Positions 14,608 to 57,757 of a stretch of DNA of 63,107 nucleotides are shown here, one piece after another. The position numbers and the translations under genes are program-made. The stretch is from an uncultured Bifidobacteriaceae bacterium (GTDB lineage: Bacteria > Verrucomicrobiota > Verrucomicrobiia > Limisphaerales > UBA11358), in the NCBI GenBank assembly GCA_964618545.1, contig CAZUBG010000002.1, positions 8,583 to 71,689 of the forward strand. Direction: 5' to 3'. Under the pieces are notes generated by a model, which did no database searches, was not told the origin of the DNA, and saw only the letters and a list, made by a program, of their open reading frames with translations. Every line of letters starts with the position of its first letter. Position 1 is the first letter of the stretch.

Positions 14608-14693
14608 GGTTTTGATTGGTTCAGGTCATTTTTTATTGAGTTATACCATTCTACACAGACTGTTCCTCCTGTCCCGTTACATTCAGGTGAACA

Positions 14694-15732: not shown

Positions 15733-15857
15733 AGTTTATTGGGTGGTGATAGGGAAGCTTTCATGCACTTCGTTCCCCATCAAGGATGAAAACACCCAGC
15801 CGTTTCTGGCAGGCCGACGCCGGGTCCGGGGACCCGGCCTACAGGTTGGCGCCCCTC

Positions 15858-15903
15858 GCCCGGCGTGAAAAGCCGGGCGATTGTCAGGCCGTCGCTCCGC
15901 GAC
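15858..15903 (-). repeat. REP-like element, family shared with 47375-47446
   Basis: Minus strand GTCGCGGAGCGACggccTGACaATcGCCCGGCtTTTCA-CGCCGGGC versus plus strand at 47375 GTCGCGGAGCGACcgaaTGACcATaGCCCGGCgTTTCAaCGCCGGGC. Confidence 0.75.
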
Positions 15904-15967
15904 TGCGGCGAGCTCGCGGAGTGACGCTTGAACCCGGCCACGAACATTGCATGCCGGCCGGCCGGAA

Positions 15968-16759: not shown

Positions 16760-16784
16760 AACGCATAATTCATGATTCCCCCAC

Positions 16785-17855: not shown

Positions 17856-17947
17856 GTTGATTCCGGGCCGCCTTCTGCCGGCCGCCCAGGCCGCAGCATT
17901 AGCGTCGTCTATAGGCTACATAACTGCTTATGGATTGCAAGGAAAAA

Positions 17948-17965
17948 ATGCGTATGGATACGCAT
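17948..17965. promoter_or_regulatory. Perfect 18-bp palindrome in the divergent luxR/lipoprotein promoter region
   Basis: ATGCGTAT-gg-ATACGCAT. Confidence 0.5.
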
Positions 17966-18070
17966 GGGCGGGGCGGGCGCTCCTTGGTAGGGTTTGATGT
18001 TGCGTCAGGAATATCATGGATCAGGGTCGAAAAATAGCGCCGTTTTGACGATCTGCGGGATCATTTTATT

Positions 18071-20410: not shown

Positions 20411-20680
20411 ATGCGTAAAGGAAATAACGGACCCGGTTTGGTGGTCGCACGGGGAAACGCTGTAAATGGCACGCTGCCGGGCGTTTAGCGAGGGTTTCAG
20501 GCGTGTCAGCGGATGCATGGCGTTTGGACGTAAGCGGTGAGCCGAAAGCCTTCTTTACAGGGCAACTCCAGACGGTGCAGAGAGGCGGCAAAGATTGGCT
20601 CTGAGCGGTGCGGCGGTTGTTTAAGAAATAGCATGAATCGCTGCCGCAAAAAACAACGCCCATAGCGGAATCCTTTTATT

Positions 20681-22264: not shown

Positions 22265-22540
22265 AAGGGAGCGACCCACAGTTTTGATCGCTGCTTCCTT
22301 GATTCTTGTAATGGAGGCCGCGTAACTCGGTATCCCGGGAGGACCCTCCGGCCATAAACCGGTGTTTCAACGTTGGGGACCTGCCCCGCGCGCGACAAGC
22401 CCACACGAACGGCTGAAATTTATTCTCACTCATACCGTTTGTCCGATTCAAGCCGGTGCTGGTTCCGCGAGGATTCAGTCGTCCCTGCGCGAAGCCTGCA
22501 CGTCCGCCCTCACCCACAGAAGCCAGTTTAATCCCACAGC

Positions 22541-22610
22541 CCCTCACCCGGCCTGCGGCCACCCTCTCGCGTTCCCACGCGCGAGGGAAGAGTCCCCTCT
22601 CCCAGGAGAG
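22541..22610. repeat. REP-like element (CCCTCACCCGGCCTGCGGCCACCCTCTC...GAGGG)
   Basis: Intergenic hairpin-forming sequence of a repeat type common in GC-rich bacteria. Confidence 0.45.
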
Positions 22611-22665
22611 AACGCCCTGACAATTTTTCGCGCATTGCGCCCTTGAACCGGGGTGTCTTCGCAAA

Positions 22666-22721
22666 GTGGGACAGGCTTCCAGCCTGTCACCGGGGACTGA
22701 CAGGCTGGAAGCCTGTCCCAC
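22666..22721. repeat. REP-like perfect inverted repeat, 24-bp arms
   Basis: GTGGGACAGGCTTCCAGCCTGTCA-ccggggac-TGACAGGCTGGAAGCCTGTCCCAC; second copy at 45571. Confidence 0.9.
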
Positions 22722-22728
22722 CAACAAC

Positions 22729-22757
22729 AAAAAAGGGCGGCCGTCGCCGGCCGCCCT
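22729..22757 (-). terminator. Intrinsic terminator after the 1534-aa gene
   Basis: Minus strand: AGGGCGGCC-ggcgac-GGCCGCCCT followed by a T run. Confidence 0.75.
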
Positions 22758-22781
22758 GGTGGTTAAAACTCGAACGCCGGC

Positions 22782-33266: not shown

Positions 33267-36200
33267 TCAAGGAATGCTTGCGGGTGTTTCCCCCTCTGAG
33301 AGACAGGGGAGTTCCAGGGTGAATACCGAGCCCTTGCCGGGCCCGTCGCTCTGGACCAGCAGGTTGCCCCCCGATTCTCTCGCCGCCAAAATACTGCTGT
33401 GCAGTCCGTAGCCGTGCCCATCCTTCCGGGTGGTGAAGCCTTGTCTGAAAATCCGCTGGAGGTTCTCCGGTGAAATCCCCACGCCGTTGTCCGCAACGGA
33501 TACACAAACCTTTTTGTCCCCGCTGAGGCTTATGCCAACTGTGATCACCTTCTCCTCCTCGGCGGATTCGCACACCGCCTGCTTGGCGTTGCTGATCAGA
33601 TTGACGAGAATTTGCAACACCTTGTGCTTGTCCACCATGATGTCCGGCGCCGGCTCGAACCGCCGCACCACGCGAGTGTCATGACGCTCCAGCGATGTGA
33701 TGTGCATGCGCAATGCGTCCTCGACCAGCGCGGGGATGGACTGCTTTTCCAGGACGCCGGAAACGTGGCCATAGTTTTGCTGCATCGCAACCACTTCCTT
33801 GATGTGATTGATATTCCGGGAGAGGCTGTAAACTTCGTCGAGCATGGTCGCCTGCTCGGCCTGCATTTGTTGGGCAATGGCCTTGAGATAAGCGGGAATT
33901 GTGTCCGTCCGCCCATCCTCGCTGAGAAATTTGATCAGCTCGTGTTGATGCTCGTCCAACAACGCGACAAGTTTGGTCATGCCGGCCGACACTTTCGAGG
34001 CCCGCACCCGTTCCATGATGACGCCGGCCGAAACAGTGATGCTGTTGAGCACATTCCCGACGTTATGCAGAACGCTGGAGGCCACCTCTGCCTGACCGGC
34101 CTTTCGCGAAGCGTCCACCAGTTGCCGGTGAACTTTCTCCAGTTTGGCCTCCGCCTCTTTGATGGAGGTGATATCCATGGAAATGCCAAATGTGCCGATA
34201 ATCTTCCCCTCAGCATTTCGCCAGGGCATTTTGTTGGTCGTCACCCAGGTGACACGGCCATCGGCATGCACCTCTTTTTCGAGTTTTCCAATGAGCGGCT
34301 TGCCGGTGCGGATGATTTCTTGTTCGTCCTCAAATGCGGAACGCGCATATTCGCCATGATAGATTTCGAAATTTGTCTTGCCCACGATTTGCTCGTGGGA
34401 GAGCGCTGATCGGACGCACAAGGACAGGCTGCAGCGGATGAAGCGCGAGCCGGCATCCTTGAAGTAGATATAATCAGACGCGTTATCCAGCAACGTTCGC
34501 AACAAGGCCTGCTCGCGGGTGAGTTCGGCGTTGGCCCGGGCCAGGTCCGCCGTCCGGCGCTGGACGCGAACTTCCAATTCTTCATTGGCCTTCTGAAGTT
34601 CCAATTGGGCGTGTTCGAGCAGGCGGTTCTGGCGCAAAATCATGGCGACCCATGTGACGGCAACGCCCAGGACCACCAGGAAGGTTCCTCCCACCCAGAG
34701 AAACCGCCGCCAGTTCCACCAGGACGGCGACTGGAGCACATGCACCCCGGCGACGGAGGACAGCAGGAGTTCAAAATCCGGGTTCGAACTCGAATAATTG
34801 CCCGCATGGTCTTTGACAATGCGGCAGACGCCGGTCACCCTCAGCACGCTTTCCGGTTCAAGGTCCGGCAACGCTCCCCGGTCCTTCGGCAATATGGCTT
34901 GGAAAACCCGCCCGCCGGTCTGCAATTGCAGCACCTCGTTGTCCAGCAGTTCGGAATGTCCCAGGAATACCGCGGTCATGGAAATGAGCCGGGACGCATT
35001 GACGGTTTGGGGCAGACTGCCGGACTGCAGTTGCGTGGGTCGTGGCATTTCGTCCGTTCCGGTCTTGCGCACCAGCGCATCGTTCAACGTGCCGGCAAAA
35101 CCGTCCGAACTTGCAAACCCGAGCACTTCGACCTGGTTCCCTTCCTGAAAGAGACCGTCATTCCTCACCTCGATGCCGCCGGTGGCATCCTCCACAAAAC
35201 AGGCCCCCCTGCGAACACAAGTGACCACGCCGCCGATTTTCACACGGTGGATCAACTCGTATTGGTCGCTGGGCTGAAGGATCTGACTGATGGGTTGGGG
35301 GGGCACGCCGAATGGATCTGCGGGCGAGGCCTCATCCACAATGATGTACTCCGCAGCCGGCACGATCAACCGGACTCCCGCCTGTTGTTCTTTGCCGTTG
35401 GCCGTCACCTGGCAAACCCCTCGTATGCGCACGGTGCAGTCCGCCAGCGCGCGGGCCTGCTCCGCTTTGATGGCAAATCCCAGATCCGCCAGCAGATCGC
35501 CGCCCGGCATTTGCAGTTTCAACGTGCGTCCGTCAAGCTTGTGAACCACGCCTTTGACCTCCACCCACTGCGCATCCTGCTGGCCCGTCATCAACTGGCT
35601 CCAGTTCCGTGGGAACGGCTTTGGCATGACTCCCATTCCCAGCACCGTCACCGAATCCGATTGCGGGCCGGGTTCGATCACCGGCGATGTGCCGGAGAAA
35701 GCGCAGCGTCCGGAAATGACGACCTGCTGGCCGGGGTGGCAGTCCGCAAACTGCTGCGCCGCAGAGGATGGAATGCGAATGCCGCCGGTGTCGTCCTGCA
35801 CATACAGATCACCCGCCTTCACCGTGACGACCCCGCGAATCCGCGCGGGGGGCATTTGCTTCAGCCGATCCACCCCAAGCTGCCGGATTCGCCGGACCGA
35901 GTTGATCTCCCTCTGGGGATGCGCCTCACTTGCTGAATTCGTTCCCGGCGTCTCGGCCTCCGCTGCCCTGCAAAACGCCTGGTTCAAAACCCAGCCATCG
36001 TTCGTGCGCTCCAGAACGCCCGTCACCTCGATCGCCTGGTCCGGTTCAAAGACGGTCGTCCCGGCGCCATAAACTTTAATGGGTGGAGCGCTTTGCCGGG
36101 TCAGCTTCAGCCACACCGGCGGTTTGCCGCCATGGGGAAAGCTCTCGATGGCATTGCTCTTTCCCCGGCGAACCCGGAAATCAAGGTCACCGCCGGGACC

Positions 36201-38786
36201 GACGGAAAGGAACGAAAACCGGGAATTGCGCTCCAGGGTTTCACGAACCATCAAGCCGGTGCCGATGCCTTCCAAGCCGTTCGTGGTGGCAACGAGTGAT
36301 TTCAGGTGCGCCACCATTTCTCCGTCTCCTTCCATACGGCTGTAGAAATAATGAAAATCATCAGCGTTGGTGGCGTCAACCCCAGCACGGCCGCCGATGT
36401 TTCCCCAACCGGTTACGGCCAGATTCATCGCGTCTCCCTGGCTGTTGCCGGGGGTCGGGGGATTGCCGATTTCCCCGTCCGTCCCGGGAAACAACCTCCC
36501 GCTCAGATGATCGAAATGACCCGTGGCCCGATAGGCGATGATTCCGGCATGGACCGTTTGATTCATCGGGATCTCCACCGGATCACCCACCTGGTTCCAG
36601 TCGGTCCCGTTTGTCGAGACAAACGCCGAGAAGCGGCTGATGGCATCACGGACAACGAGTGGCTGCCCCGGTTGTCCGGCCACAAACCGCGCGGTCAACC
36701 TGACCCGCTGGCCGGCATGCGATGAAACATTGACGGATTCCAAGTCACGCACTGAGATGGCTGGCATCTGCGCCCAATCATCATCGGCCGGCGGTCTTGG
36801 CACAATGTTTCCAATGGAAGGAACCCACAACACCGACGCATGGCGGTCACCGCCCATCGTCAGATATCCTTCACAAAATCCGTGGACGAGGACCCGGGTG
36901 TTCAACCAAGAGTGAAGGTTTGCCTGCTGTGGATTGGCCACACGGACCGTCATCTGGTGTCCATTGTCAACGATCTCCAGCATGGTCCAGTAAACACCGT
37001 CGGTGGTAATCTGGTCAATCACCCCTTCCGCTCTCGCCCACCGAAAGTCGTCCTTGTTTGTCCAGGATTGTTCCAATTGGATGGCCACGGGATCAGGCAA
37101 AGACCGGCCTGTTAGTGGGGTCAGCTTCGCCTGCGTGATGAGCGGCTTCCCGTAGCGGGGAGTGAACGTCTTGATGAATGCCTCCATGCTCACCCGGCTC
37201 GCGACGGTGTTCGTGTCGTTGTGCCATGCCGACATCTCGCTGTGGGTGGCAAATGGATATTTCAGCCAGAATTCGCGCAGAATCCTGCCCCGCTGGGTTG
37301 GTGAACCATCGGCATCGGACGCCACCGGCGAAAGAAATTCCCCGTCAATCACAGCCCTGGGCAATTCCGGCCCCGCCCAGGCAACGGAGAGTGAATCTTC
37401 CCCGACGGGATTCCAATGCGTTGCCTCAATATAATATTTTTTGCCGGCTTCCAGGAATATTCCCACGGACCGTTGTGAAGGCATTTGGTCCCACCCCCGG
37501 TAGGAGGAGTAGTTCATGATATTATTGACCGAGGCGATTTTTCGACCATGCACCGGATCATCATCCGTGGACAACCACAACTCCGACCCGTTGTCGCTCG
37601 CGATCCAAAATGTGTAGTTGCCGGTCCGCGGTGGATGGATAAATCCCCGGACCCGGGCGACATACAACTCACCCAGATTGATCGGCGCCTCGAACGACGT
37701 CAGGTACTGGCGGCCCGAGGGATGATCGGGATAGCTGATCACTTCGGCCGTGGTCTTGCCCTGCAACACCGCGTAGGTTCCAGGCAGAATCGGGTTGCTC
37801 CCCAGGTCAATCGGCACTCGCATCGCTCCGCTCGAATCCTTGAACAGCACTTCGTTCTTGACCGGATCCGCATAGACCACTACGCCCTCGATTTGGGCCT
37901 CCAATCCTTTGAAGGCCTCGGGGCCGTGCAATTCCAAAATCCTCCGCACCGACTGGATCGGCCCGGCGGGGGACAACCCCGTCGTCGTCCGTGCGTTTAT
38001 GCTTGAGGCACAGGTAAAATCCTGAATCAAATTCGAGTTCACGTAACATTCGATCCGCGGGCCGCTCAGGACGACCCGGATGTCATACCAAACGTTGGTA
38101 AGGATGGTCTGTGGAACGCGTGCGCCGGAGGTGGAGGCGCCGTTCACCATTTGTTCAATATAAGACTGGGTGTTCGCCCGGCCGCCAACGTCGAACCAGG
38201 TCCAATTTTGATCGTCGAGCAAGTTGAAGCCGATTAAAAACCCCTCCCTCCCCCCGGTTTTGCGCGCCCGGAGCGTGAGGGTGTAATTGGCCCAATTCGT
38301 GTCGCCGAACGCCGCGCGGCAGTTGGGTTCACGGGCCGATTCCCGAAGCACTCCCTGTGCGGTGTCCCAGATGCCGCCGGCCAGGCGCCAGCCGTTCGTG
38401 CCTTGATTCGCAAAATCGCTCTGGTACAGCACCACCCCATTGCTGGTGACCATGAGGTCTTTGTACTCAACCGCCGTGTTCCACGCGCCAACCCCGATCG
38501 CGCCATGATAGGAGGCCTCGTCCGAAGCAGTCTGCTCAACGGGACTTTCAGACTGGCTTGTGGCCGTGGCCGCCTGAACCCAAATTGCCAGACCAAAGAT
38601 CGAAATCAGGACGAGTCTTTGGAAAAATCGGATGCTCCATGCTTTGGCCGGGGCCAGACGGGTTGCCGACCCCTTGAGAAAGCCGGTTGACGGCTCCTTA
38701 AAGGCGGCCACCGTCTTTCGGAAGCCCAAATTCACTGAAAGACGGTCAAACCCGGCGCTCAGTTTTTCGGGACCGGCAAAATGCAC
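33267..38786 (-). CDS. Giant membrane sensor histidine kinase (DUF1080-like lectin, PA14, repeated OB-like domains, TM, PAS, HisKA-like, HATPase_c)
   Basis: TLTLRARKTGGREGF (DUF1080-like); YTFWIASDNGSELWLS...LEAGKKYYIE (PA14); TM WWNWRRFLWVGG...; PAS LDNASDYIYFKD; H-box VLHNVGNVL; QILVNLISNA, DNGVG, GHGYGL. Start codon uncertain. Confidence 0.9.
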   Translation of the reverse strand: MHFAGPEKLSAGFDRLSVNLGFRKTVAAFKEPSTGFLKGSATRLAPAKAWSIRFFQRLVLISIFGLAIWVQAATATSQSESPVEQTASDEASYHGAIGVGAWNTAVEYKDLMVTSNGVVLYQSDFANQGTNGWRLAGGIWDTAQGVLRESAREPNCRAAFGDTNWANYTLTLRARKTGGREGFLIGFNLLDDQNWTWFDVGGRANTQSYIEQMVNGASTSGARVPQTILTNVWYDIRVVLSGPRIECYVNSNLIQDFTCASSINARTTTGLSPAGPIQSVRRILELHGPEAFKGLEAQIEGVVVYADPVKNEVLFKDSSGAMRVPIDLGSNPILPGTYAVLQGKTTAEVISYPDHPSGRQYLTSFEAPINLGELYVARVRGFIHPPRTGNYTFWIASDNGSELWLSTDDDPVHGRKIASVNNIMNYSSYRGWDQMPSQRSVGIFLEAGKKYYIEATHWNPVGEDSLSVAWAGPELPRAVIDGEFLSPVASDADGSPTQRGRILREFWLKYPFATHSEMSAWHNDTNTVASRVSMEAFIKTFTPRYGKPLITQAKLTPLTGRSLPDPVAIQLEQSWTNKDDFRWARAEGVIDQITTDGVYWTMLEIVDNGHQMTVRVANPQQANLHSWLNTRVLVHGFCEGYLTMGGDRHASVLWVPSIGNIVPRPPADDDWAQMPAISVRDLESVNVSSHAGQRVRLTARFVAGQPGQPLVVRDAISRFSAFVSTNGTDWNQVGDPVEIPMNQTVHAGIIAYRATGHFDHLSGRLFPGTDGEIGNPPTPGNSQGDAMNLAVTGWGNIGGRAGVDATNADDFHYFYSRMEGDGEMVAHLKSLVATTNGLEGIGTGLMVRETLERNSRFSFLSVGPGGDLDFRVRRGKSNAIESFPHGGKPPVWLKLTRQSAPPIKVYGAGTTVFEPDQAIEVTGVLERTNDGWVLNQAFCRAAEAETPGTNSASEAHPQREINSVRRIRQLGVDRLKQMPPARIRGVVTVKAGDLYVQDDTGGIRIPSSAAQQFADCHPGQQVVISGRCAFSGTSPVIEPGPQSDSVTVLGMGVMPKPFPRNWSQLMTGQQDAQWVEVKGVVHKLDGRTLKLQMPGGDLLADLGFAIKAEQARALADCTVRIRGVCQVTANGKEQQAGVRLIVPAAEYIIVDEASPADPFGVPPQPISQILQPSDQYELIHRVKIGGVVTCVRRGACFVEDATGGIEVRNDGLFQEGNQVEVLGFASSDGFAGTLNDALVRKTGTDEMPRPTQLQSGSLPQTVNASRLISMTAVFLGHSELLDNEVLQLQTGGRVFQAILPKDRGALPDLEPESVLRVTGVCRIVKDHAGNYSSSNPDFELLLSSVAGVHVLQSPSWWNWRRFLWVGGTFLVVLGVAVTWVAMILRQNRLLEHAQLELQKANEELEVRVQRRTADLARANAELTREQALLRTLLDNASDYIYFKDAGSRFIRCSLSLCVRSALSHEQIVGKTNFEIYHGEYARSAFEDEQEIIRTGKPLIGKLEKEVHADGRVTWVTTNKMPWRNAEGKIIGTFGISMDITSIKEAEAKLEKVHRQLVDASRKAGQAEVASSVLHNVGNVLNSITVSAGVIMERVRASKVSAGMTKLVALLDEHQHELIKFLSEDGRTDTIPAYLKAIAQQMQAEQATMLDEVYSLSRNINHIKEVVAMQQNYGHVSGVLEKQSIPALVEDALRMHITSLERHDTRVVRRFEPAPDIMVDKHKVLQILVNLISNAKQAVCESAEEEKVITVGISLSGDKKVCVSVADNGVGISPENLQRIFRQGFTTRKDGHGYGLHSSILAARESGGNLLVQSDGPGKGSVFTLELPCLSEGETPASIP

Positions 38787-48801: not shown

Positions 48802-49236
48802 TTATGCCGCAGGTTGCGGAAAGATCCGGTACAACAGCAGGTACACCACCACGCCGGTCACGGAGACGTACAGCCACAAGGGCAGCGTCCAGCGCGCAAT
48901 CGCTTTGTGCGCCTCGAACCGCCGCCGCCGCGCCCGGTAAAGGGTCGCCAAAATCAGCGGCACAATCACCACCGCCAGCACGGTGTGCGTCAGCAACAGG
49001 GTCAGATACCAGGGCCGGAACCACGCCGGCTGCACAAAATGCGTGAGGGTTTTGACCGTGACATGGTAGGTCAGATAGCAGCCCAAAAAGAGGACGGACG
49101 TGGTGAAGGCCGCCACCATGCAGTTGCGATGGGCCGTCTTGTTTCCCCGGCGGATGAAGACATACCCGCAGGAAAGAAAAATGGCGCTCAGCCCGTTGAG
49201 GCTGGCATTGACCGCCGGCAGATCGTGGAGGGTCAT
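48802..49236 (-). CDS. DUF420 membrane protein (oxidase-associated)
   Basis: LPAVNASLNGLS...HRNCM...FLGCYLTYH...HKAIARWTLPLWLYVSVTGV. Confidence 0.9.
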   Translation of the reverse strand: MTLHDLPAVNASLNGLSAIFLSCGYVFIRRGNKTAHRNCMVAAFTTSVLFLGCYLTYHVTVKTLTHFVQPAWFRPWYLTLLLTHTVLAVVIVPLILATLYRARRRRFEAHKAIARWTLPLWLYVSVTGVVVYLLLYRIFPQPAA

Positions 49237-49886
49237 GGTTCGATTTCGAGTTCGTGCAGGGAGGACCTGATGCGCGGGGCAACGGCGGCCCAGTCCACCC
49301 CATCGCCGCCGGTTTCAAAGACCCCGCGCAACCGCGCGTGTTTGTCCACCATCACAAACAGGGTGGTGTGAATGAACAAGTCAAATTCGCCGTGACGATC
49401 CGCGGGCTTCACGGGCACGGAGCCGAGTTTCAAACTGTCGCCGCCCAGGCCGGCCACCGCGGCCTTGGTGCCGGTCAGGAAAATCCAGCGGTTCGGGTCG
49501 GCCTGATAATGGGCGGCGTACTGGGCCAGCACGGGCGGCGTGTCAAATTCCGGGTCGGTGGTCAGGGTGACGAGTTTGGCCCGGCTCTCGGGCGGCAGGA
49601 GGTCCTGCAACGACTTCATCTGCTGCGTCATGCGGGGACAGGGGCCGGGACAGCGGGTGAAAATGATGTCGGCCACCCAGACATGATTCGTCAGGTCGGC
49701 CAGGGTGACGGGGTGTCCGGTCTGATTGGTCAGGGTGAAATCGGCGATTTGGCCCAGGACCGGCGGCGGCGGGTGGTTCTGCTTGCGGGCTTCCGCCACC
49801 GCCAGCAGATAACACAATCCCAGCAGGCCGAAGAGCAGTCCGCCCAGCCAGAGCGAACGGGGCAGTTGTCGTGAAGGATCAGTCAT
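49233..49886 (-). CDS. SCO family copper chaperone
   Basis: N-terminal TM, FTRCPGPCP (CxxxC), TTDPEFDTP, IHTTLF. Confidence 0.92.
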   Translation of the reverse strand: MTDPSRQLPRSLWLGGLLFGLLGLCYLLAVAEARKQNHPPPPVLGQIADFTLTNQTGHPVTLADLTNHVWVADIIFTRCPGPCPRMTQQMKSLQDLLPPESRAKLVTLTTDPEFDTPPVLAQYAAHYQADPNRWIFLTGTKAAVAGLGGDSLKLGSVPVKPADRHGEFDLFIHTTLFVMVDKHARLRGVFETGGDGVDWAAVAPRIRSSLHELEIEP

Positions 49887-49967: not shown

Positions 49968-50735
49968 TTATTCAAAACTCGTGGTCGAGCCGCTCTTGGA
50001 TGCCAGCCATTTGTCATAGTCGGCCTGGCTCTCCACCACCACAAAGCCGCCCGTCATGGCCGCGTGACCGCTGCCGCACAACTGGGCGCATTCGATCTGG
50101 TAGCGGCCGATTTTATTGGGGGTGAAGGAGCAGGGAATGCGCAGGCCGGGAATCGCGTCCTGGGTGATGCGCATGGCCACGAGCTTGAGCGAATGGATCA
50201 CGTCCTTGGAACTCAGGTAGATGATCACCGGCTTGTTCACGGGCACGTGAATCTCATTGAGAATCTGCACGTCGTCCTTGCCATTGGCATCGGCCGGGTC
50301 CACGCCAAAGACGTTGGTCGAGGCCACAAACTTCATGTCCTGCCGGCCGAAAATGCCGTCCGGCCCGGCGTAGCGGGCGTTCCAGGCAAATTGTTGCGCC
50401 ACAACCTGGATGACCGTGGAATCGGCCGCGGCGGGAAACTTCTGCACGTTTTTGGCCCACATCGGGAGGGCGATGACCAGCAACAGCACGGCTTCAATGG
50501 CGACCACGGCGTATTCGACATAATGCGGCACATGGCTTTTGTTCCCCTCGTAATCCGCCCTGGGATTGCGTTTGGCGCTGAAACGCCACACGACATAGCC
50601 AAAGTAGATGATCCAGCCGACGAACAGGGCGAGCATCAGCCAGTGGACATAAACCATGAGGTCATCCACGGCCTTGCCGTTGGTGGAGGCCAGTTCGGGC
50701 AGGCCCAGCATGTTTTTGGCAAACCAACCGGTCAT
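49968..50735 (-). CDS. ctaC: Heme-copper oxidase subunit II (CuA, no cytochrome c domain)
   Basis: Two TMs, AQQFAW, SKDVIHS and CAQLCGSGHAAM CuA ligands. Confidence 0.93.
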   Translation of the reverse strand: MTGWFAKNMLGLPELASTNGKAVDDLMVYVHWLMLALFVGWIIYFGYVVWRFSAKRNPRADYEGNKSHVPHYVEYAVVAIEAVLLLVIALPMWAKNVQKFPAAADSTVIQVVAQQFAWNARYAGPDGIFGRQDMKFVASTNVFGVDPADANGKDDVQILNEIHVPVNKPVIIYLSSKDVIHSLKLVAMRITQDAIPGLRIPCSFTPNKIGRYQIECAQLCGSGHAAMTGGFVVVESQADYDKWLASKSGSTTSFE

Positions 50736-50980
50736 AGTTCCTCCATTTTTTTAACGGCTTCCTGGTGCATCGCCTCGCCCTTGCGGACAATATGCACAAA
50801 CCCCACCAGGAAAACGCTCAGCACGGACAGCACCACGCCCAGCAGGGTGAGGATGCCCCAGTTCATGGCGCTGGCCAGCGGGGAATCCGTTTTGCCGTAA
50901 CAGGCGGCGCAGGCGAACAGCGGGGACGGGGCGGCGGCGGTCAGCAGAACCGTCAGCAGGATGTTTCGGGTCAGTTTCAT
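50732..50980 (-). CDS. Small membrane protein with CxxC motif
   Basis: Signal-like N-terminus, ACAACYG, one TM; overlaps its neighbours in the operon. Confidence 0.7.
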   Translation of the reverse strand: MKLTRNILLTVLLTAAAPSPLFACAACYGKTDSPLASAMNWGILTLLGVVLSVLSVFLVGFVHIVRKGEAMHQEAVKKMEEL

Positions 50981-51162
50981 AGGAAGCTCACTTTCTTTAG
51001 TTTCCGCAAAAAATAAACGCCATAGACAATCACCAAAACGCCGGCGGCCACGCCGACCGCGCCGAACCCCGGATGGCGGTCCACAAAAGCCCAGGCCGCG
51101 CAGCCGAACGACAGCGCCGTCAGCAGGGTCACAAACACGAGATGAAAGCCTTTGAGGGACAT
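50977..51162 (-). CDS. Small two-TM hypothetical protein
   Basis: MSLKGFHLVF...YGVYFLRKLKKVSFL; stop overlaps the next start. Confidence 0.7.
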   Translation of the reverse strand: MSLKGFHLVFVTLLTALSFGCAAWAFVDRHPGFGAVGVAAGVLVIVYGVYFLRKLKKVSFL

Positions 51163-51179
51163 GTTTGGTTGAGGGTTGA

Positions 51180-51494
51180 TCAGTGGGTGGTGCCGACGGG
51201 GAAATCCTGCATGGCCCAGAGGGTCAGGCCCAGCAGGCCGGCGAAAAAAATGACGGTGAAGAGCAGGACCGTGAAAATCATTTTTTTCTCGGTCAGCAAG
51301 TGCATCAAAAAACCGGCCACCAGAAAGGCGTTGACGACGGCCACGGCCAGAATGGCGGCCACCTTGACCGGCCAGCCGCCGATGTGGGAAAACGAGGCGC
51401 TGATCATCATGGCCGTGGTGCAGGCCACGGCGAGGAACACCAGTCCGCAGCGGCGGACGGAGCTTTTCAGATCGGTTGCGGAGGATTCACTCAT
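51180..51494 (-). CDS. Heme-copper oxidase subunit IV family protein
   Basis: Three TMs, NAFLVAGFLMHLLTEKK (xVxxxFMHL motif). Confidence 0.85.
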   Translation of the reverse strand: MSESSATDLKSSVRRCGLVFLAVACTTAMMISASFSHIGGWPVKVAAILAVAVVNAFLVAGFLMHLLTEKKMIFTVLLFTVIFFAGLLGLTLWAMQDFPVGTTH

Positions 51495-51501
51495 AGTTTG
51501 C

Positions 51502-52281
51502 TCAGGTTAAATACAGGACGGGAAAGAGAAAAATCCACACGAGGTCCACAAAATGCCAGAACAGGCCGGAAACCTCGATCCGGTTCGTGAAGCGCTGGCG
51601 ATCCGTTTTCCACATGCGGCTGCCCGGCCCCCACAGATAGCCGATGACCACGCAGCCACCCATAATATGAAGGGCGTGCAAGCCCGTCATGGTGAAATAA
51701 ATGGCGGTGAAGGTGTTGTGCCGCGGGCCGTAGTTTTCCATTTTGAGGATGTTGTCACGCTCCAGACGGACCTCGTTGTCCGGGATGTTTTTCTGGGCGC
51801 GCAGATCGTAGAGAAGCTGCTCCTGATTGCCGTCAATAATCCGCCCATCCAAAACCACTTCCTGGTCGTTCTGTTCCACCAGATGGCCGTCGGCGATGCG
51901 GCCGTCCTTCAAATGAATTTCGTAGTGAATCCATTTGTCGTGGTACTCGTAGGATTTGACGCAGAGGAAGGAGAGGGCGAGCAGCAGGGTGCAGGCATGG
52001 AAAAACTTGAACTTGCGGAACTCGCCCACCTTGCAGGCGACCCAGGCCAGCAGGGTGGTGATGGCGGAAAGCGCCAGGAGCAGGGTGTTGACGGTGCCGA
52101 GCGTGACGCTGAGCCAGCCGTGCGGCCAGAAACCCTCCGGCGCGCCCACCCGCAGCAGGACGTAGGCGGAAAAGAGTCCGCCAAAGAGCATCACTTCCGA
52201 CGCAAGAAACAGCCAGATGCCCAGCTTGGCGTTGTACAGGCCGGTGTCGGGCCGGGCTTCAATGGTGTAGGGTATGTCCAT
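51502..52281 (-). CDS. ctaE: Heme-copper oxidase subunit III (short form)
   Basis: KLGIWLFLASEVMLFGGLF, YFTMTGLHALH, GLFWHFVDLVWIFLFPVLY. Confidence 0.92.
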   Translation of the reverse strand: MDIPYTIEARPDTGLYNAKLGIWLFLASEVMLFGGLFSAYVLLRVGAPEGFWPHGWLSVTLGTVNTLLLALSAITTLLAWVACKVGEFRKFKFFHACTLLLALSFLCVKSYEYHDKWIHYEIHLKDGRIADGHLVEQNDQEVVLDGRIIDGNQEQLLYDLRAQKNIPDNEVRLERDNILKMENYGPRHNTFTAIYFTMTGLHALHIMGGCVVIGYLWGPGSRMWKTDRQRFTNRIEVSGLFWHFVDLVWIFLFPVLYLT

Positions 52282-52289
52282 GAATGGGT

Positions 52290-54176
52290 TCAGTGGGTGA
52301 CCGGCGCCTTTTTGACCACCGGTTCGTTTTGCGGGGAGAAATCCCGGGATTCACCGGGCACGCTGTATTCGTAAGGGCCGCGGGCCACCTGCGGTTCGAT
52401 CTTGAAATTGCCATGCGGCGGCGGGGTGGGGGTCTGCCATTCGAGGGTCGTGGAACCCCAGGGGTTGTCGGAGTTCACTTTTTCGCCGTGTTTGATGCTC
52501 CAGAAGAGATTGATGATGAAGGGGAGCTGGGCCAGGCCCAGGCCGATGGCCGCCCACAAAATGGTGTGGTTCAGTTGAATGATGGAGTCGGGCAGGGTGT
52601 CAATGGCCCCCGGCACGCGGGCGGCGGAGTAATTGGCGCCGCCATCGGACATGCGGCGCAGCATGCCCTTGATGCCCTGCAAAAACATGGGCATGAAGAC
52701 GATGTTCATGAAGGTGAACGAGCACCAGAAATGCACGCGGCCCCAGTATTCATTCATGCGCCGCCCGGTCATTTTGGGAAACCAAAAATAAATCCCCGCA
52801 AACAGCGCGAAAATGGTCCCCGGCGCCACGACGTAATGGAAGTGCGCGATGATGTAATAGGTGTCGTGCAGATACAAATCGCTGGCGGCCAGCCCCAGCG
52901 GCAGGCCGGTCAGCCCGCCAATGCCGAACATCGGCAGAAAGCCCAGCGCAAAGAGCATGGGGGTGTTGAAGCGGATGGAGCCGCCCCACAACGAGATGAA
53001 CAGGCACGTCAAAATGATGACGGAGGGAATGGAGATAATCATCGTCGTCGCCTGGAAGAAGGTGGCGATTCGCTGGCCCATGCCGGTCATGTACATGTGG
53101 TGCGCCCAGACAATGAAGGAGAGGAAGCCGACAAACAAAACGGAATAGACCAGGGATTTATAGCCCCAGATGGGCTTGCGGGTGTTGTTGGCGATGACCT
53201 CGCAGACAATGCCCATGGCCGGCAATATCAACACATAAACTTCCGGATGACCCAGGAACCAGAACAAATGCTGCCACAACAGGGGGCTGCCGCCCCCGCT
53301 GATGTCGGCCAGCCGCCCGCCCACGGCCAGGCCGGTGGGCAGAAAGAAACTGGTGTGCGCGACGTTGTCCATTAATTGCAGCAAACCGGCGGCTTCGAGC
53401 GGCGGAAACGCCAGCAGCAGAATGAAGGCCGTCACAAATTGCGCCCAGACAAAAAACGGCAGCCGCATCCAGGTCATGCCCGGGGCGCGCAACTGGATGA
53501 TGGTGGCGATGAAGTTCACCGCGCCCAGCAGCGAGGAGGTGATGAGCAGGACCATCCCGACCAGCCAGAAGGCCTGGCCGTTGGTGGGGATGGTGGTGGC
53601 CAGCGGGGAATAGGAGGTCCAGCCCGCCTGCGCCGCGCCGCCGGGAATAAAGAAACTGACCAGCATCACCACGCCGCCCAGGAAGAAGGCGTGAAAACTG
53701 GCCATGTTGACGCGGGGAAAGGTCATGTCCGGCGCGCCAATCATGAGCGGCACCACATAATTGCCAAACGCGGCGAAGGCGAGCGGCACCACGCCCAAAA
53801 ACACCATGATCGTCCCGTGCATCGCGCCAAAGGAATTGTAGAGCTCCGGAGAAATCACCCCGCCCGCCGCCGGCTGGCCGAGCACTTTTTCCAGCAGCAG
53901 ACCGATAAACGGCACCGCCTTGCCCGGATTGGCAATCTGCCAGCGCATCAGCAGCATCAGGGAAAACCCAAACAGCATGAACAACAGGGCCACCATGCCG
54001 TATTGAATGCCGATGACCTTGTGATCGGTGGAGAAAACATATTTGCTGAGGAAGGCCGGCTCGTGATGCCCGTGGTGTGCCTCGTGTTCCGCGTGTCCCG
54101 GGTGCCCGTGTTCCGCGTGAACCTCCGGGGCGGGCGGCTCGCGAAACGGCGGAAATTGTTGAACGTTTTCTTCCAT
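52290..54176 (-). CDS. ctaD: Heme-copper oxidase subunit I, A-family
   Basis: AMHGTIM, GAPDMTFPRVN, FWFLGHPEVY, WAHHM, HDTYYIIAHFHY, MLRR. Confidence 0.96.
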   Translation of the reverse strand: MEENVQQFPPFREPPAPEVHAEHGHPGHAEHEAHHGHHEPAFLSKYVFSTDHKVIGIQYGMVALLFMLFGFSLMLLMRWQIANPGKAVPFIGLLLEKVLGQPAAGGVISPELYNSFGAMHGTIMVFLGVVPLAFAAFGNYVVPLMIGAPDMTFPRVNMASFHAFFLGGVVMLVSFFIPGGAAQAGWTSYSPLATTIPTNGQAFWLVGMVLLITSSLLGAVNFIATIIQLRAPGMTWMRLPFFVWAQFVTAFILLLAFPPLEAAGLLQLMDNVAHTSFFLPTGLAVGGRLADISGGGSPLLWQHLFWFLGHPEVYVLILPAMGIVCEVIANNTRKPIWGYKSLVYSVLFVGFLSFIVWAHHMYMTGMGQRIATFFQATTMIISIPSVIILTCLFISLWGGSIRFNTPMLFALGFLPMFGIGGLTGLPLGLAASDLYLHDTYYIIAHFHYVVAPGTIFALFAGIYFWFPKMTGRRMNEYWGRVHFWCSFTFMNIVFMPMFLQGIKGMLRRMSDGGANYSAARVPGAIDTLPDSIIQLNHTILWAAIGLGLAQLPFIINLFWSIKHGEKVNSDNPWGSTTLEWQTPTPPPHGNFKIEPQVARGPYEYSVPGESRDFSPQNEPVVKKAPVTH

Positions 54177-54177
54177 A

Positions 54178-55080
54178 TTATTTCACCTTGTCCAAAACCA
54201 TCACCGCCAGCAACAGCGGCAGATAGAGAATTGAGGCCAAAAACAACTGGCGCGCCCGGGGCATGGTCAGGTCGCGCGCAAAGCGGATGGCGGACCAGAG
54301 ATAGGCGGCGCCCAACAGCAGCGCCCCCGTCAGATACACCGGCCCGGACAGGTGGTACAGAAACGGAAACACGCTCACCACCAGCAGCGCCGCCGAGTGG
54401 CTCACCGCCTGCTGGCCGGTGCGCTGGCCGTCGGCATCCACGAGGGGCAGCATTTTGAAACCGGCGCGCGCATAATCCTCCCGGTACATCCAGGCGATGG
54501 CAAAAAAATGGGGCAACTGCCAGAAGGCGAGAATGGCAAACAGGGCCCAGCCTTCGCCGCTCAATTCGCCCCGGGCCGCCGTCCAGCCCATGAGCGGCGG
54601 CAGCGCGCCGGGAATGGCCCCGACGGGCGTGTTCAACCAGGTCACCCGTTTCAACGGGGTGTAGATGAAGAGATAGCTGATGAGCGTCACCGCGCCGATG
54701 ACGCTGGTGAGCGGATTGACCAGCACGGCGAGCCAGACCAGCCCGGCCACGGAGCACGCGCCGCCAAAAATCATCACCGTGCCCGGTTGCAGGCGTCCGG
54801 ACGGCAGGGGGCGGTCCAGGGTCCGCCGCATGCGGGCGTCGTAATCCTTCTCCAACAACTGGTTCAGGGCCGCCGCGCCGGACGCCACCAGCGCCGTGCC
54901 CGCCAGCGCCTGAAACATCAGGAGAAAATTCAGCGGCCCGCGCCAGCCCAGATAAAAGCCCACCAGCGTGGTGAGCAGCACCAGGGTGGTCAGCCGCACC
55001 TTCACCAGATCGGCGAAGACCGCCGTCCGGCTTTTTTCCGCGGTGGAAACCGCGCTTAATGTGTCTGCCGTTGATTTCAT
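54178..55080 (-). CDS. ctaB: Heme o synthase (protoheme IX farnesyltransferase)
   Basis: LNQLLEKDYDARMRRTLDRPLPSGR, YTPLKR, GAIPGALPPLMGW, WQLPHF. Confidence 0.95.
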   Translation of the reverse strand: MKSTADTLSAVSTAEKSRTAVFADLVKVRLTTLVLLTTLVGFYLGWRGPLNFLLMFQALAGTALVASGAAALNQLLEKDYDARMRRTLDRPLPSGRLQPGTVMIFGGACSVAGLVWLAVLVNPLTSVIGAVTLISYLFIYTPLKRVTWLNTPVGAIPGALPPLMGWTAARGELSGEGWALFAILAFWQLPHFFAIAWMYREDYARAGFKMLPLVDADGQRTGQQAVSHSAALLVVSVFPFLYHLSGPVYLTGALLLGAAYLWSAIRFARDLTMPRARQLFLASILYLPLLLAVMVLDKVK

Positions 55081-55081
55081 T

Positions 55082-56293
55082 TCACTTGTTGACCGCCATG
55101 GCCCCGGACTCATTTAACACACCCGATATTGCTTTGTCAGGCACAAAATACGTTGCGCCCGCCGGACCGGTGCCTCCCGAAGTTGTGGGCGGATTGTTTG
55201 TACCGCAGACTTCCAAGTCTGCTGTATCGCGGGTTTCCCAACCCGCAGACCGTCCGCCAAGTTGACGCGCCCACCCAGCCTTGCCTGCAACTTCGGGATG
55301 CACGGCCGCCGGACGCCGGAACGCAATCACGCACCACAGGGCGCCGGCCACGAGCGACAGCGCGCCCACCAGCACATGGAGGGTGGCGATGTCGGCGGCC
55401 TTGTTGGTGAGGATGGTGGCAATGCCCAGGCCGATCTGCACCAGAATCAGCACCAGCCAGCCCGCTGCAAGCTTGGTCAGCAACGCCCGCCCGCCCAACT
55501 GCCGCCAGGCCCGCCCGGCGCCGGCGGCCACCGCCAGCAGAATGGCCAGCGCCCCCAGCCGGTGAACCATTTGCAAAATAATTTGCCCGGCCGTGATCGG
55601 GTTTTCGGAGACGATTTCCATGCGGTCGGCATTGTATTTTGCCACGGCCTCGCGGCTGGTGTCCGGCCAAAGCTGTCCATAGGCCAGCGGAAAGTCGCGG
55701 ATGGCCAGACCGGCATGCTGATGCCGCATGGTCGCCCCGAGGATGAGCTGGCCAAAAATCAAGACCGTGGCCCCCAGCACCAGCCAGCGCAGCCCGGCGG
55801 GCGCTTCGGGCCATTTTTCCCCCGTCGCCAACCACCAACGGCTGGTGCCCAACGCCAGGGCGCAAACCAGAATGAAAAACAGTTGGGCCGCCGTGCCGTG
55901 AAAAATCCCCAGATTGTCCATGTGCCACCGGACCCGCAGCCCGCCCAGCACCCCCTGCGCAATCACCAGCACCACGGCGGCCGCCCCGAGCCGGCGCATC
56001 CACCGGCGCGGGTCCCGGAGCCACAACCAAACCGCCAGCGCCACCGTCAGCAACCCCACCGCCGAAGCCAGCAGACGGTGGGTGTGCTCATAAAACACCC
56101 CGCCCACCCATTTGCCGATCGGAAACAAAAACAGGTTGTAGCCATAGGTGTTCGGCCAGTCCGGCACCGACATCCCCGCCTCATGACTGGTGACCAGACC
56201 GCCCAGCCCCAGCAGCAGAAACGTCACAATTGCCGTCAGGAGCGCAAAATAATGCATCCCCGGATTGTAATTTCCATGACTTTTCTTGTTCAT
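55082..56293 (-). CDS. ctaA: Heme A synthase (COX15/CtaA) with REP-containing C-terminal tail
   Basis: GGLVTSHEAGMSVPDWP, EHTHR, QGVLGG, FHG, MVHR, TLHV. Confidence 0.92.
   Translation of the reverse strand: MNKKSHGNYNPGMHYFALLTAIVTFLLLGLGGLVTSHEAGMSVPDWPNTYGYNLFLFPIGKWVGGVFYEHTHRLLASAVGLLTVALAVWLWLRDPRRWMRRLGAAAVVLVIAQGVLGGLRVRWHMDNLGIFHGTAAQLFFILVCALALGTSRWWLATGEKWPEAPAGLRWLVLGATVLIFGQLILGATMRHQHAGLAIRDFPLAYGQLWPDTSREAVAKYNADRMEIVSENPITAGQIILQMVHRLGALAILLAVAAGAGRAWRQLGGRALLTKLAAGWLVLILVQIGLGIATILTNKAADIATLHVLVGALSLVAGALWCVIAFRRPAAVHPEVAGKAGWARQLGGRSAGWETRDTADLEVCGTNNPPTTSGGTGPAGATYFVPDKAISGVLNESGAMAVNK
55200..55247. repeat. REP-like element inside the 3' end of ctaA
   Basis: GTACCGCAGACTTCCAAGTCTGCTGTATCGCGGGTTTCCCAACCCGC; GCAGACTT/AAGTCTGC and GCGGGTT/AACCCGC hairpins; translated as GWETRDTADLEVCGT. 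Confidence 0.75.
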
Positions 56294-56350
56294 ATAAACC
56301 ATAAAAAAACCGCCGCGCACTTTGACGCAACGGCGGGCCTTTCCGGCCGG

Positions 56351-57064
56351 TTACTTGGCCTCGAAGGTGAAATTCACCGTGGCATCCGTGTCCTTGACTT
56401 CGACTTCCTGGGTGACGGCCCCGGCTTTGCGGTGGGCCGCCTCAATCGTATATTTTCCGGGTGGAACATTTTTGATGACGAACTTGCCGTCCACCCCGCT
56501 CAGGCAATAGTACGGGCTGTCCTCGATGGTCACCCACGCAAACATCCAGGGGTGTACATCGCACTGGAACTTCATGAACTTCTCCGGTTTCACAAAGGTG
56601 TAGGTCAAATCCGCACCGTTGGGCATCTGGGCGGCGTTGATCAGGGCATCGTTGGCCTTCTCATTTTCCGGCGCCGTGGGGTTCAAATGCACGTTGTGCA
56701 GCACCGGATCGGAATTCTTCACGATCAGTTTTTGACCGGTTTGCACCACCAGAATCGTGGGGGTGTACAGGCAGCCCTTTTGATCCAGCAACGCCGCCGG
56801 GGCCGAGGCGCCGGTGGAACCGGTCACGCCCTTGAGCGAAACGATCACGTCGCCAAATTCACCGTTGGCTCCGACCCGGTAAAAATGAGTGGTGGGCGCC
56901 TTGCCGTCATACATCGCGGCACAGGTGGGATCGTTGAGAATGGGGGTGATTTCCTTTTCCGGCGGCGGGGTGCCCTTGTAGGTCACCGTGCCAATAATGT
57001 CCGCCGCGGAGGCCCACTGGCCGGCCCCGGCGCCCACCGCCAACAGCAAAAGAATTTTATTCAT
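56351..57064 (-). CDS. Periplasmic carboxypeptidase-regulatory-like / cupredoxin-like protein heading the oxidase operon
   Basis: Signal peptide, LDQKGCLYTP, NSDPVLHNVH, CDVHPWM, C-terminal DGKFVIKNVPPGKYTIEAAH. Confidence 0.85.
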   Translation of the reverse strand: MNKILLLLAVGAGAGQWASAADIIGTVTYKGTPPPEKEITPILNDPTCAAMYDGKAPTTHFYRVGANGEFGDVIVSLKGVTGSTGASAPAALLDQKGCLYTPTILVVQTGQKLIVKNSDPVLHNVHLNPTAPENEKANDALINAAQMPNGADLTYTFVKPEKFMKFQCDVHPWMFAWVTIEDSPYYCLSGVDGKFVIKNVPPGKYTIEAAHRKAGAVTQEVEVKDTDATVNFTFEAK

Positions 57065-57150: not shown

Positions 57151-57717
57151 TTAAAGACCCTTCAATCGGCGGTTGGTTTGATCCAAGTCAAACCGTTCCG
57201 CATCCCACTCCCCGCCCACCCAGTCCAGCATTTCAGCATGTTCGGGATGTTTGGGGTTCCCCAGAATTTCAAGCAAATGATCATAGCCCCCCATCCCGCC
57301 GCAATCGTCCGGCGGACAGGCCTTGGCTCCGGCCAGACAGACCGGGCGTTTGAAATCGGCGTCCGGCGGCAAAACTTTTTCCACCGTGACTTCATGCGCC
57401 CAACCGTCGCCAAAATCATATTCGTAAATGAATTTCCTTTTCGCGGCGGGGGCGAGATCGGCCAGGGTGTATTCATCCTCGTTTAACATTTCCATGCCCA
57501 TGTCGGCAAACTCCGGGGCCGGCGCCCCATAAAAGGCTTTCCCCGCGATGAATTGATGCATGTGCGAATTCGTCCAGGGCATCACGCGCTGGAGGAGATC
57601 GTGCAGGCTTGACAGCGGCAGATCCGCACGCACCACGACGCGCCGCCAGATGGCCGGTTTGGACCATTTCAAAGTTATCTTTAATTGATACAGCGCGCCG
57701 GGCGGTTTTTTGGCCAT
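57151..57717 (-). CDS. Plasmid pRiA4b ORF-3 family protein
   Basis: YQLKITL...IWRRVVV...LHDLLQRVMPWTNSHMHQF...YEYDFGDGWAHEV...CPPDDCGG. Confidence 0.92.
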   Translation of the reverse strand: MAKKPPGALYQLKITLKWSKPAIWRRVVVRADLPLSSLHDLLQRVMPWTNSHMHQFIAGKAFYGAPAPEFADMGMEMLNEDEYTLADLAPAAKRKFIYEYDFGDGWAHEVTVEKVLPPDADFKRPVCLAGAKACPPDDCGGMGGYDHLLEILGNPKHPEHAEMLDWVGGEWDAERFDLDQTNRRLKGL

Positions 57718-57757
57718 GCCGGTAAAATGGCAGGTCATTTGATTTTATCAAGGCTCG

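Follow-up and report, generated by a model that had tools for sequence, protein, structure and literature searches.

The lysine of the K-channel is among the best-studied 'essential' residues in bioenergetics, and its replacement in model heme-copper oxidases (HCOs) halts reduction of the active site. In A-type enzymes this channel is defined by Lys354, Thr351, Ser291 and Tyr280, in the numbering of Paracoccus denitrificans (Pd) (Sousa et al. 2011, PMC3084760). Many A-family COX1 sequences that lack the lysine have been tabulated as 'KC-channel', 'hybrid' or 'modified', among them an Elusimicrobia A1 entry (OGR57075), Methylacidiphilum and Ca. Calescamantes (Degli Esposti 2021, PMC8239418, Supplementary table for Fig. 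S7). For acidophilic iron oxidisers, a preprint described hydrophobic residues at K354 together with loss of the COX2 entry Glu, and suggested that their enzymes keep the D-channel only (Degli Esposti 2020). We found no report in the literature on proton routing in any lysine-less A-family enzyme. Here we analyse a cox gene cluster in a stretch of 63,107 nucleotides (the window) of contig CAZUBG010000002.1 (GenBank assembly GCA_964618545.1, positions 8,583 to 71,689), deposited as an uncultured Bifidobacteriaceae bacterium and placed by GTDB in the Verrucomicrobiota. Its coxI gene encodes an A-family subunit I (CoxI) without the K-channel lysine, and its coxII gene encodes a subunit II (CoxII) with an invariant glutamate, Glu81 (E81), in the middle of transmembrane (TM) helix 2, which we propose as a replacement. 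An initial annotation of this DNA had implied that the lysine loss was without precedent. That view is corrected by the published tables, from which lysine-less A-family enzymes are already known; what is new is the correlate, a Glu in TM2 of subunit II. The features on which the argument rests are listed here, with residues of Rhodobacter sphaeroides (Rs) given for reference.

52290..54176, minus strand: coxI, A1-type heme-copper oxidase subunit I, 628 amino acids (aa); PF00115, E = 3.5e-132, and PDB alignments
53007..53045, minus strand: helix VIII segment TMIISIPSVIILT, CoxI residues 378-390; direct DNA reading and gap-free alignment to Rs and Mycobacterium smegmatis
53202..53204, minus strand: codon of Cys325 (Rs S299 position; variable in the clade); residue table and homolog alignment
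49968..50735, minus strand: coxII, CuA subunit II, 255 aa, without a cytochrome c domain; PF00116
50514..50516, minus strand: codon of CoxII Glu74 (E74), the probable K-channel entry Glu (bovine E62, Rs E101, Pd E78); spacing and MAFFT
50493..50495, minus strand: codon of CoxII E81, the invariant mid-TM2 carboxylate and proposed Lys replacement; clade alignment

The nearest solved relatives of CoxI, each with an E value near 1e-114, are the A-family subunits I of M. smegmatis, R. sphaeroides and P. denitrificans. Alignment by phmmer to R. sphaeroides 1M56_A and M. smegmatis 6ADQ_F ran with zero gaps from WAHHMY through helix VIII to WGGSI, the query stretch beginning ffqattmiis, continuing ipsviilt and ending clfislwggsi. 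At the Rs K362 position this alignment places Ile388 (codon ATT, 53013-53015), with no Lys at or next to it, and the Rs positions T359, S299, S365 and F364 are occupied by Ser385, Cys325, Cys391 and T390, respectively. Read directly, the codons of the helix VIII segment are acg atg att atc, tcc (Ser382), att ccc, tcc (Ser385), gtc atc, ATT (Ile388) and ttg acg. The initial annotation had given the exchanges K362 to Ile, T359 to Ser and S299 to Cys, and it was correct in every residue.

It had also stated that the six metal-ligand His, the Tyr of HPEVY and the D-channel are present, and the alignment and residue table bear this out. Heme a would be bound by H120 and H447 (Rs H102 and H421), heme a3 by H445 (Rs H419), and CuB by H310, H359 and H360 (Rs H284, H333 and H334). 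Both Y314 and E312 lie within GHPEVY of helix VI, Y314 corresponding to Tyr-I, which would form the covalent cross-link with a CuB His. The D-channel is complete (Y59, N139, D150, N157, S160, S214/S215, N221, plus E312), its residues D150, N221, N139, N157, Y59, S160, S215 and E312 matching Pd D124, N199, N113, N131, Y35, S134, S193 and Glu278, in that order. The Mg-site residues H437/D438 and the Arg pair R507/R508 are likewise present.

The K-channel fingerprint, by comparison, is kept at Tyr314 only, with Ile388, Ser385 (a conservative change) and Cys325 in place of Pd Lys354, Thr351 and Ser291. The lower-channel trio of Rs S299, K362 and S365 has been exchanged as a whole for apolar or small residues. 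Hydroxyl side chains are found at Ser345 (Pd A311, Rs A319), Ser353 (Pd G319), Ser382 and, at the T359 position, Ser385. A substitute Lys, Arg or His was sought in or beside helix VIII and throughout TM6-TM9, and none was found; the one Lys in the vicinity, K340, stands where TM7 begins on the cytoplasmic side, a position at which lysine-containing relatives also have Lys or Arg. Nor does the lower channel hold any clade-specific acidic or basic CoxI residue that could pair with E81 or stand in for the Lys. The clade-specific polar gains in CoxI are S382 and T/S390, and further gains (N114, Q246, E261, Q267, T332 and Q375) lie off the channel or towards the periplasmic side. An AlphaFold2 model of CoxI built with 44 close homologs was too poor for use (mean predicted local distance difference test score 45, predicted template modelling score 0.42).

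CoxI belongs to the A family by homology and by every feature other than the K-channel fingerprint, in which it is atypical. The cluster combines the features of A1 enzymes as defined by Pereira 2001 and Sousa 2011: six His ligands, Tyr-I, a D-channel with the Glu of the XGHPEV motif, by which A1 is told from A2, a CuA subunit II and a subunit III. Ile388 at Pd K354, together with Ser345 and Ser353 at the KC-equivalent positions of TM7, also corresponds to the 'KC-channel' variant of A1. Assignment to the B family (ba3) fails on the complete D-channel, on Ile rather than Thr at position 354, and on the best PDB matches, which are all A-family. Among other members of the HCO superfamily, NO reductases (NORs) are marked by loss of Tyr-I, altered CuB/FeB ligands and the motifs H-X-Arom-X-E and HH-X-Arom-Arom-X17-E (PMC3084760); this identity was excluded by Tyr-I and the three CuB His in HPEVY/WAHHMY, and the NOR-type Glu motifs are absent. 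The best-matching equivalog model is TIGR02891 (CtaD_CoxA), which CoxI matches at 580.4 bits, below the trusted cut-off of 670.75. In public annotation, clade members often carry the name 'cbb3-type cytochrome c oxidase subunit I'; since they score below the CtaD_CoxA cut-off, pipelines resort to this generic and misleading name.

The loss of the Lys is a trait of a clade, and neither chance nor sequencing error, as seen from two sets of relatives. The motif ..PSV[IV]ILT occurs in 120 of the 120 homologs returned (81-90% identity), some of which are named by their sources as Verrucomicrobia subdivision 3, Verrucomicrobiae or Limisphaerales. Scanning a single genome for each species yielded 80 loci, designated by L numbers, and all 26 with at least 54% identity (L001-L026) have I, L or V at the Lys position. 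These 26 come from Verrucomicrobiota, Vicinamibacteria and other Acidobacteriota, Marinimicrobia, Elusimicrobia and Hydrogenedentota. Identity then drops abruptly to 48% or less, and 51 of the 54 loci below the drop have the canonical S...K...N. The lysine-less clade is monophyletic in a neighbour-joining oxidase tree, and it includes the locus of an Elusimicrobia metagenome-assembled genome (L021, 61% identity). Across the nearest 50%-identity cluster representatives, Lys is absent in 53 of the 135 having a residue at that column.

Within the clade, Glu326 and Ser353 are kept in all 26 loci and Ser385 in 25. The S365 position is A, S, C or T and the S299 position A, G, C, T or S; among the 120 homologs, the latter is I, A, V, C or G. 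As the S299 position varies so freely, Cys325 carries no special meaning.

The cox genes are under purifying selection. Against four clade members, with synonymous divergence (dS) near saturation, the ratio of nonsynonymous to synonymous divergence (dN/dS) was 0.12-0.21 for coxI, 0.18-0.34 for coxIII, and for coxII 0.22-0.31 in three comparisons and 0.63 against L003. On the strength of this selection and of the canonical residues, a pseudogene was rejected. The sequence recurs in several wetland and peat metagenomes. Positions 50898-51174 are matched exactly by two 151-nt contigs of one wetland metatranscriptome, weak evidence for transcription of the cluster given that DNA carry-over is possible.

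CoxII has the CuA ligands H181, C216, C220, H224 and M227. Its best-matching model is TIGR02866 (CoxB), with a score of 122 bits against an equivalog cut-off of 147.7. The CuA loop reads C-A-Q-L-C, with Gln218 where canonical enzymes have the Mg/Mn-ligating Glu, and Phe116 (QQFAW) takes the place of the electron-entry Trp. Both substitutions occur in some lysine-containing relatives and so are not tied to the loss of the Lys.

Two carboxylates in TM2 of CoxII bear on the K-channel. The first, E74, is favoured as the entry Glu because the ungapped spacing from it to the electron-entry aromatic is 42 residues, the same as in the bovine and Rs subunits, and MAFFT pairs it with the LE motif of the entry Glu. 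Of 23 clade members, 19 are acidic at this position (17 with Glu, 2 with Asp), which suggests that the K-channel entrance is still used. The second, E81, lies seven residues, or about two helical turns, deeper in TM2 and takes the place of the Pro in the canonical stripe L-E-x-x-W-T-x-x-P. It is invariant (entropy 0) in the query and 23 clade loci, that is, in all sequences with a readable TM2, and shares with E74 a conserved helix stripe at positions 74/77/81/84-85/88/91. The face bearing E74, V77, E81, L84/L85 and P91 presumably looks towards protein.

We also asked how TM2 carboxylates are distributed among other lineages, with a scan anchored on the aromatic motif that follows TM2 of CoxII. 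A TM2-core acid was found in 30 of 34 lysine-less loci; of 51 lysine-containing loci it was apparent in two, both of them misplaced scan windows. Other lysine-less lineages were covered by the contigs of nine further representatives, eight of which carry coxII. In the query clade the acid sits 12 residues before the Trp at the end of TM2. The remaining lysine-less lineages are as follows.

L053: TM2 Glu, 11 residues before the TM2-end Trp
L046/L062/L081: TM2 Asp, 11 residues before the TM2-end Trp
L083: TM2 Asp, 11 residues before the TM2-end Trp
L086 (distant): Asp in TM2
L085: Glu late in TM2, and Glu at Pd position 347 in TM8 of CoxI
L088: no TM2 acid; Glu at Pd position 347 in TM8 of CoxI
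L087: no TM2 acid; Lys replaced by Gln
L084 and L089: neither TM2 acid nor TM8 Glu

When lineages are treated as independent, a TM2 acid is present in about 6 of 10 lysine-less lineages versus none of about 8 lysine-containing ones. Lysine-less CoxI sequences with Glu at Pd 347 (P0200, P0215, P0221, P0245, P0256, P0260, L085 and L088) are in many cases fused to CoxIII. This Glu lies in helix VIII, two turns above the Lys position; the partner CoxII has no mid-TM2 acid, with a late Glu only in L085, and the Pd 347 Glu looks like an alternative relocation of the carboxylate.

Other variants were seen on the way. In a lineage with a CoxI of about 840 aa, the Lys position is occupied by Gln (P0170, P0178, P0211, P0222, P0232, P0237, P0241, P0244, P0248 and L087) or, in P0172, by His; one such CoxI, in a 5.1-Mb assembly, has as neighbours Caa3_CtaG and a CoxII that contains a cytochrome c domain. 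L081 (the contig of P0131) carries two tandem cox operons: the first is COX1-COX3-COX4 with SCO1 and CtaG, and the second, which lacks the Lys, has two COX3 genes and a COX4 fused to cytochrome c. In L029-L038, L062, L070, L081 and L083, some with and some without the Lys, TM1 of CoxII bears a conserved Glu close to its cytoplasmic end (e.g. LIVEVGVLWF).

The enzyme is best read as an intact, working aa3-type O2 reductase that lacks the K-channel Lys. The initial annotation had reasoned that the canonical lysine route cannot operate as it does in model enzymes, which is upheld, and that the enzyme needs another proton route or has a different chemistry or stoichiometry. Another route gains from the clade-specific change in subunit II. 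A different chemistry is unsupported, given the canonical CuB/heme a3/Tyr and CuA sites, the D-channel, the heme A and copper assembly genes and the purifying selection. For the route itself our leading proposal, which we put at somewhat short of an even chance, is a K-channel rebuilt on carboxylates and hydroxyls in a working aa3-type A1 oxidase, with E81 of subunit II in the role of the Lys. Protons of the reductive half-reaction would enter at E74(II) and pass to E81(II), a protonatable group in mid-channel at about the normal depth of the Lys. From there they would travel via water, Ser345, Ser385 and Ser382 to Tyr314, while the intact D-channel would still carry the pumped and oxidative-phase protons. 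Such a route would have its like in the B and C families, whose K-analogue channels also do without lysine.

The geometry of model enzymes is compatible with this proposal. Helix II of subunit II lines the K-channel, forms its entrance with helix VII of subunit I, and moves upon channel hydration (PMC6115622; preprint 10.1101/2022.04.13.488242). In R. sphaeroides, E101(II) lies about 21-23 Å and K362 about 8-13 Å from Y288, and A319, the equivalent of Ser345, faces the channel at the height of the Lys (PMC9687966). From these distances, E101(II) and K362 are about 10 Å apart along the channel, the rise of seven helical residues. As E81 is E74 plus seven on the same helix face, it would come near the position of the Lys amine, provided that E74 is the true equivalent of the entry Glu.

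Several points weigh against this assignment. The register of TM2 relative to solved structures is ambiguous: phmmer sets Rs E101 at Y72, with four indels, which would move E81 to +9 and onto the opposite helix face, and hmmalign yields a third register. The placement of E81 relative to the channel comes from helix arithmetic. Ile388 is bulky and hydrophobic and could block the channel at its level, and we found no biochemical characterisation of any clade member in the literature. In the comparison across lineages, L053, L046/L062/L081 and L083 branch close to the main clade in the neighbour-joining tree, and the TM2-acid groups may share one ancestral event rather than reflect convergence. 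A TM2 acid is also not obligatory, since L084 and L089 have neither this nor the TM8 Glu.

A channel of hydroxyls and water within subunit I alone, of the 'KC-like' kind of Degli Esposti et al., could instead run through Ser345, Ser353, Ser385, Ser382, Glu326 and Tyr314, with water in the room left by the small residues 325 and 391, and E81(II) structural or irrelevant. The residue pattern Y-C-I-S-C-E-G-L-S-S fits the Elusimicrobia A1 entry classed as 'KC-channel' (PMC8239418); in the clade Ser353 is invariant, Ser385 nearly so and Ser382 gained; Ser345 corresponds to Rs A319, which lines the channel level with K362; and B- and C-family enzymes run on such channels (Sousa 2011, PMC3084760). 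We nevertheless consider this explanation unlikely. Ser345, Ser353 and Glu326 are common in lysine-containing relatives too and are thus not specific compensations, the lower-channel positions 325, 388 and 391 have no conserved polar group, and the explanation does not account for a membrane-buried Glu of subunit II that is both invariant and unpaired.

It is also conceivable, and in our judgement quite improbable, that no K-route functions at all and that the D-channel supplies all protons via Glu312, possibly with slower active-site reduction or an altered H+/e- ratio. In model enzymes the D-channel disconnects from the active site during the reductive phase (PMC6115622), and the retention of E74 and Ser385 together with the gain of E81 and Ser382 would be unexpected in an abandoned region. 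Against these objections stand the completeness of the D-channel, the argument of the 2020 preprint that lysine-less acidophile enzymes keep the D-channel only, and the turnover of the lysine-less Acidithiobacillus ferrooxidans oxidase despite its lost entry Glu (PMC4059628). Another function (NO reduction, sensing or non-pumping O2 scavenging) or decay, to which the scores below the equivalog cut-offs (CtaD_CoxA 580 bits vs 670.75, CoxB 122 vs 147.7) might point, is highly improbable in view of all O2-reductase hallmarks (three CuB His and Tyr-I), the lack of NOR-type Glu motifs, the strong purifying selection on a widespread and abundant clade, and the co-located heme A and copper assembly genes.

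Beyond this clade, the proposal that E81(II) replaces the Lys might be extended into a rule, which we offer tentatively, as a possibility: where the Lys is lost, the mid-channel protonatable group relocates, mostly to a buried Glu or Asp in TM2 of subunit II and elsewhere to a TM8 Glu (Pd 347), and this would have arisen more than once. If true, the 'K-channel' would be a site open to either kind of group, cationic in one subunit or anionic in the other.

The genes around coxI and coxII form a single-strand cluster in the order cupredoxin fusion, ctaA, ctaB, coxI, coxIII, coxIV-like, orf82, coxII, SCO1 and DUF420. Its remaining members are listed below.

51502..52281, minus strand: coxIII, 259 aa; PF00510
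51180..51494, minus strand: coxIV-like small subunit, 104 aa; weak PF03626 and TIGR02229 matches, syntenic in the clade
50732..50980, minus strand: orf82, small membrane protein, 82 aa; conserved in 16 loci, always between coxIV and coxII
54178..55113, minus strand: ctaB, heme O synthase (UbiA family); PF01040, E = 5e-61
55082..56320, minus strand: ctaA, heme A synthase; PF02628, E = 1e-38
49233..49886, minus strand: SCO1/SenC copper chaperone; PF02630, E = 3e-23
48802..49236, minus strand: DUF420 membrane protein, common in cox clusters; PF04238, E = 9e-44
56351..57064, minus strand: secreted fusion of a cupredoxin-like domain and CarboxypepD_reg; PF13620, E = 3.5e-6, and weak PF00127, E = 1.2e-3

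Genes for heme A synthesis and copper insertion beside a CuA subunit II indicate an aa3-type oxidase. The order coxI-coxIII-coxIV-orf82-coxII, with coxII downstream, is found in most clade loci, whereas lysine-containing relatives have the usual coxII-coxI. Because CoxII has no cytochrome c domain, a soluble electron donor is expected, and the adjacent cupredoxin-like protein may be a candidate donor or partner. Its copper site has the form H..C-x2-H-x2-M, reading HNVH ... C-D-V-H-P-W-M, and homologs of the fusion adjoin coxI in many loci, lysine-less and lysine-containing alike.

The protein encoded by orf82 has a signal/lipobox-like end, a conserved A-C-x-x-C-[FY]-G motif and then one TM helix, with homologs in L001-L025. 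It matched no family in Pfam or NCBIfam; possible roles are those of an additional subunit of the oxidase or of a factor in copper/thiol assembly. CoxIII carries an insertion of about 70 aa between TM helices (residues ~115-185), seen only in verrucomicrobial members (the query, L001-L005, L008, L017, L022 and L024) and missing from the Acidobacteriota, Marinimicrobia and Elusimicrobia members in the alignment.

At 55200-55239, where the 3' end of ctaA meets the start of ctaB, lies a 40-nt element with the palindrome GCAGACTT-GG-AAGTCTGC, present in one copy in the window. Short pieces of it occur inside otherwise unrelated metagenome and metatranscriptome contigs, and contig depth over it is 4415, versus about 5 for the flanks (run X1); it looks like a high-copy hairpin resembling repetitive extragenic palindromes. 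The C-terminal tail of the ctaA open reading frame probably runs into this element and may be non-coding. One metagenome contig of run X1 links 50485 to 55204, omitting 4718 bases from the 5' part of coxII through ctaB, with only 21 bases on the shorter side of the joint. As the 55204 end falls inside the high-copy palindromic element, the joint is probably an assembly chimera.

Further out, a PRiA4_ORF3-like protein is encoded directly upstream of the cox cluster (57151-57738). Across 8680-27386 and 33267-38786 the window encodes very large secreted proteins (Ig-like, He_PIG, Big_9, DUF11), a 1839-aa PA14/PAS histidine kinase and a Lon protease. Among the genes scanned in the 63-kb window, we saw neither a second terminal oxidase nor an alternative complex III.

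A clade that lacks the Lys and is otherwise complete constitutes a natural experiment on whether this residue serves in charge compensation, gating or proton relay. With the subunit II Glu there is now a hypothesis open to site-directed mutagenesis, and it suggests a rescue design in R. sphaeroides. The clade is large and environmentally abundant, spanning soil and wetland Verrucomicrobia, Vicinamibacteria, marine Marinimicrobia and Elusimicrobia, and recognising it matters when metagenomes are used to infer the respiratory capacity of uncultured lineages and the energy that they are likely to gain.

Compared with the canonical A1 oxidases, namely the Rs and Pd aa3 enzymes and bovine complex IV, the query is about 40-45% identical over the core and has the same metal ligands, Tyr-I, Glu286 equivalent and D-channel, with identical Mg-site His/Asp and Arg pair. 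The differences are K362 to Ile, S299 to Cys or variable, S365 to Cys, Ala or Ser, and F364 to Thr or Ser. In CoxII, the canonical TM2 stripe W-T-x-x-P becomes V-V-x-x-E in the query, and coxII lies downstream of coxI. The Thermus thermophilus ba3 oxidase (B family) and the cbb3 oxidases (C family) have lysine-free channels of Ser, Thr, Tyr and water that start at a Glu of an accessory subunit (Sousa 2011; Murali 2024). The likeness to these concerns possible working, not membership: those families have no D-channel and use a single channel for all protons, whereas the query, an A-family enzyme by phylogeny, has its D-channel in full. A precedent is offered by sNOR (Murali et al. 2024, PMC11214002), in which a conserved Glu has moved to a different place in the K-channel region; the active site of this B-related NO reductase is altered, whereas the query has the O2-reductase site.

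A close known counterpart is the KC-channel class of PMC8239418 (Elusimicrobia, Ca. Calescamantes and Methylacidiphilaceae). Over the ten tabulated K/KC-channel positions, Y A I S C E G I S S in Elusimicrobia GWA2_38_7 corresponds to Y C I S C E G L S S in the query, each residue being the same or a conservative change. That work gives a residue table only, with COX2 scored at the single entry-Glu position; it lists Elusimicrobia and not Verrucomicrobia subdivision 3, Vicinamibacteria, Marinimicrobia or Hydrogenedentota, and mentions neither the mid-TM2 Glu nor the coxI-III-IV-orf82-II order. The aa3 oxidase of the A. ferrooxidans rus operon (CoxA/CoxB) shares with the query the A-family HPEVY, a hydrophobic residue at K354, the D-channel and a cupredoxin gene in the cox cluster, and this lysine-less enzyme has measurable cytochrome c oxidase activity (PMC4059628). 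If the query cupredoxin fusion is an electron donor, it would parallel AcoP and rusticyanin of A. ferrooxidans. The acidophile enzymes of this type form a distant clade with extra N-terminal TM helices, and their COX2 entry Glu is replaced by V, I or W, whereas the query enzyme keeps the entry Glu and adds E81.

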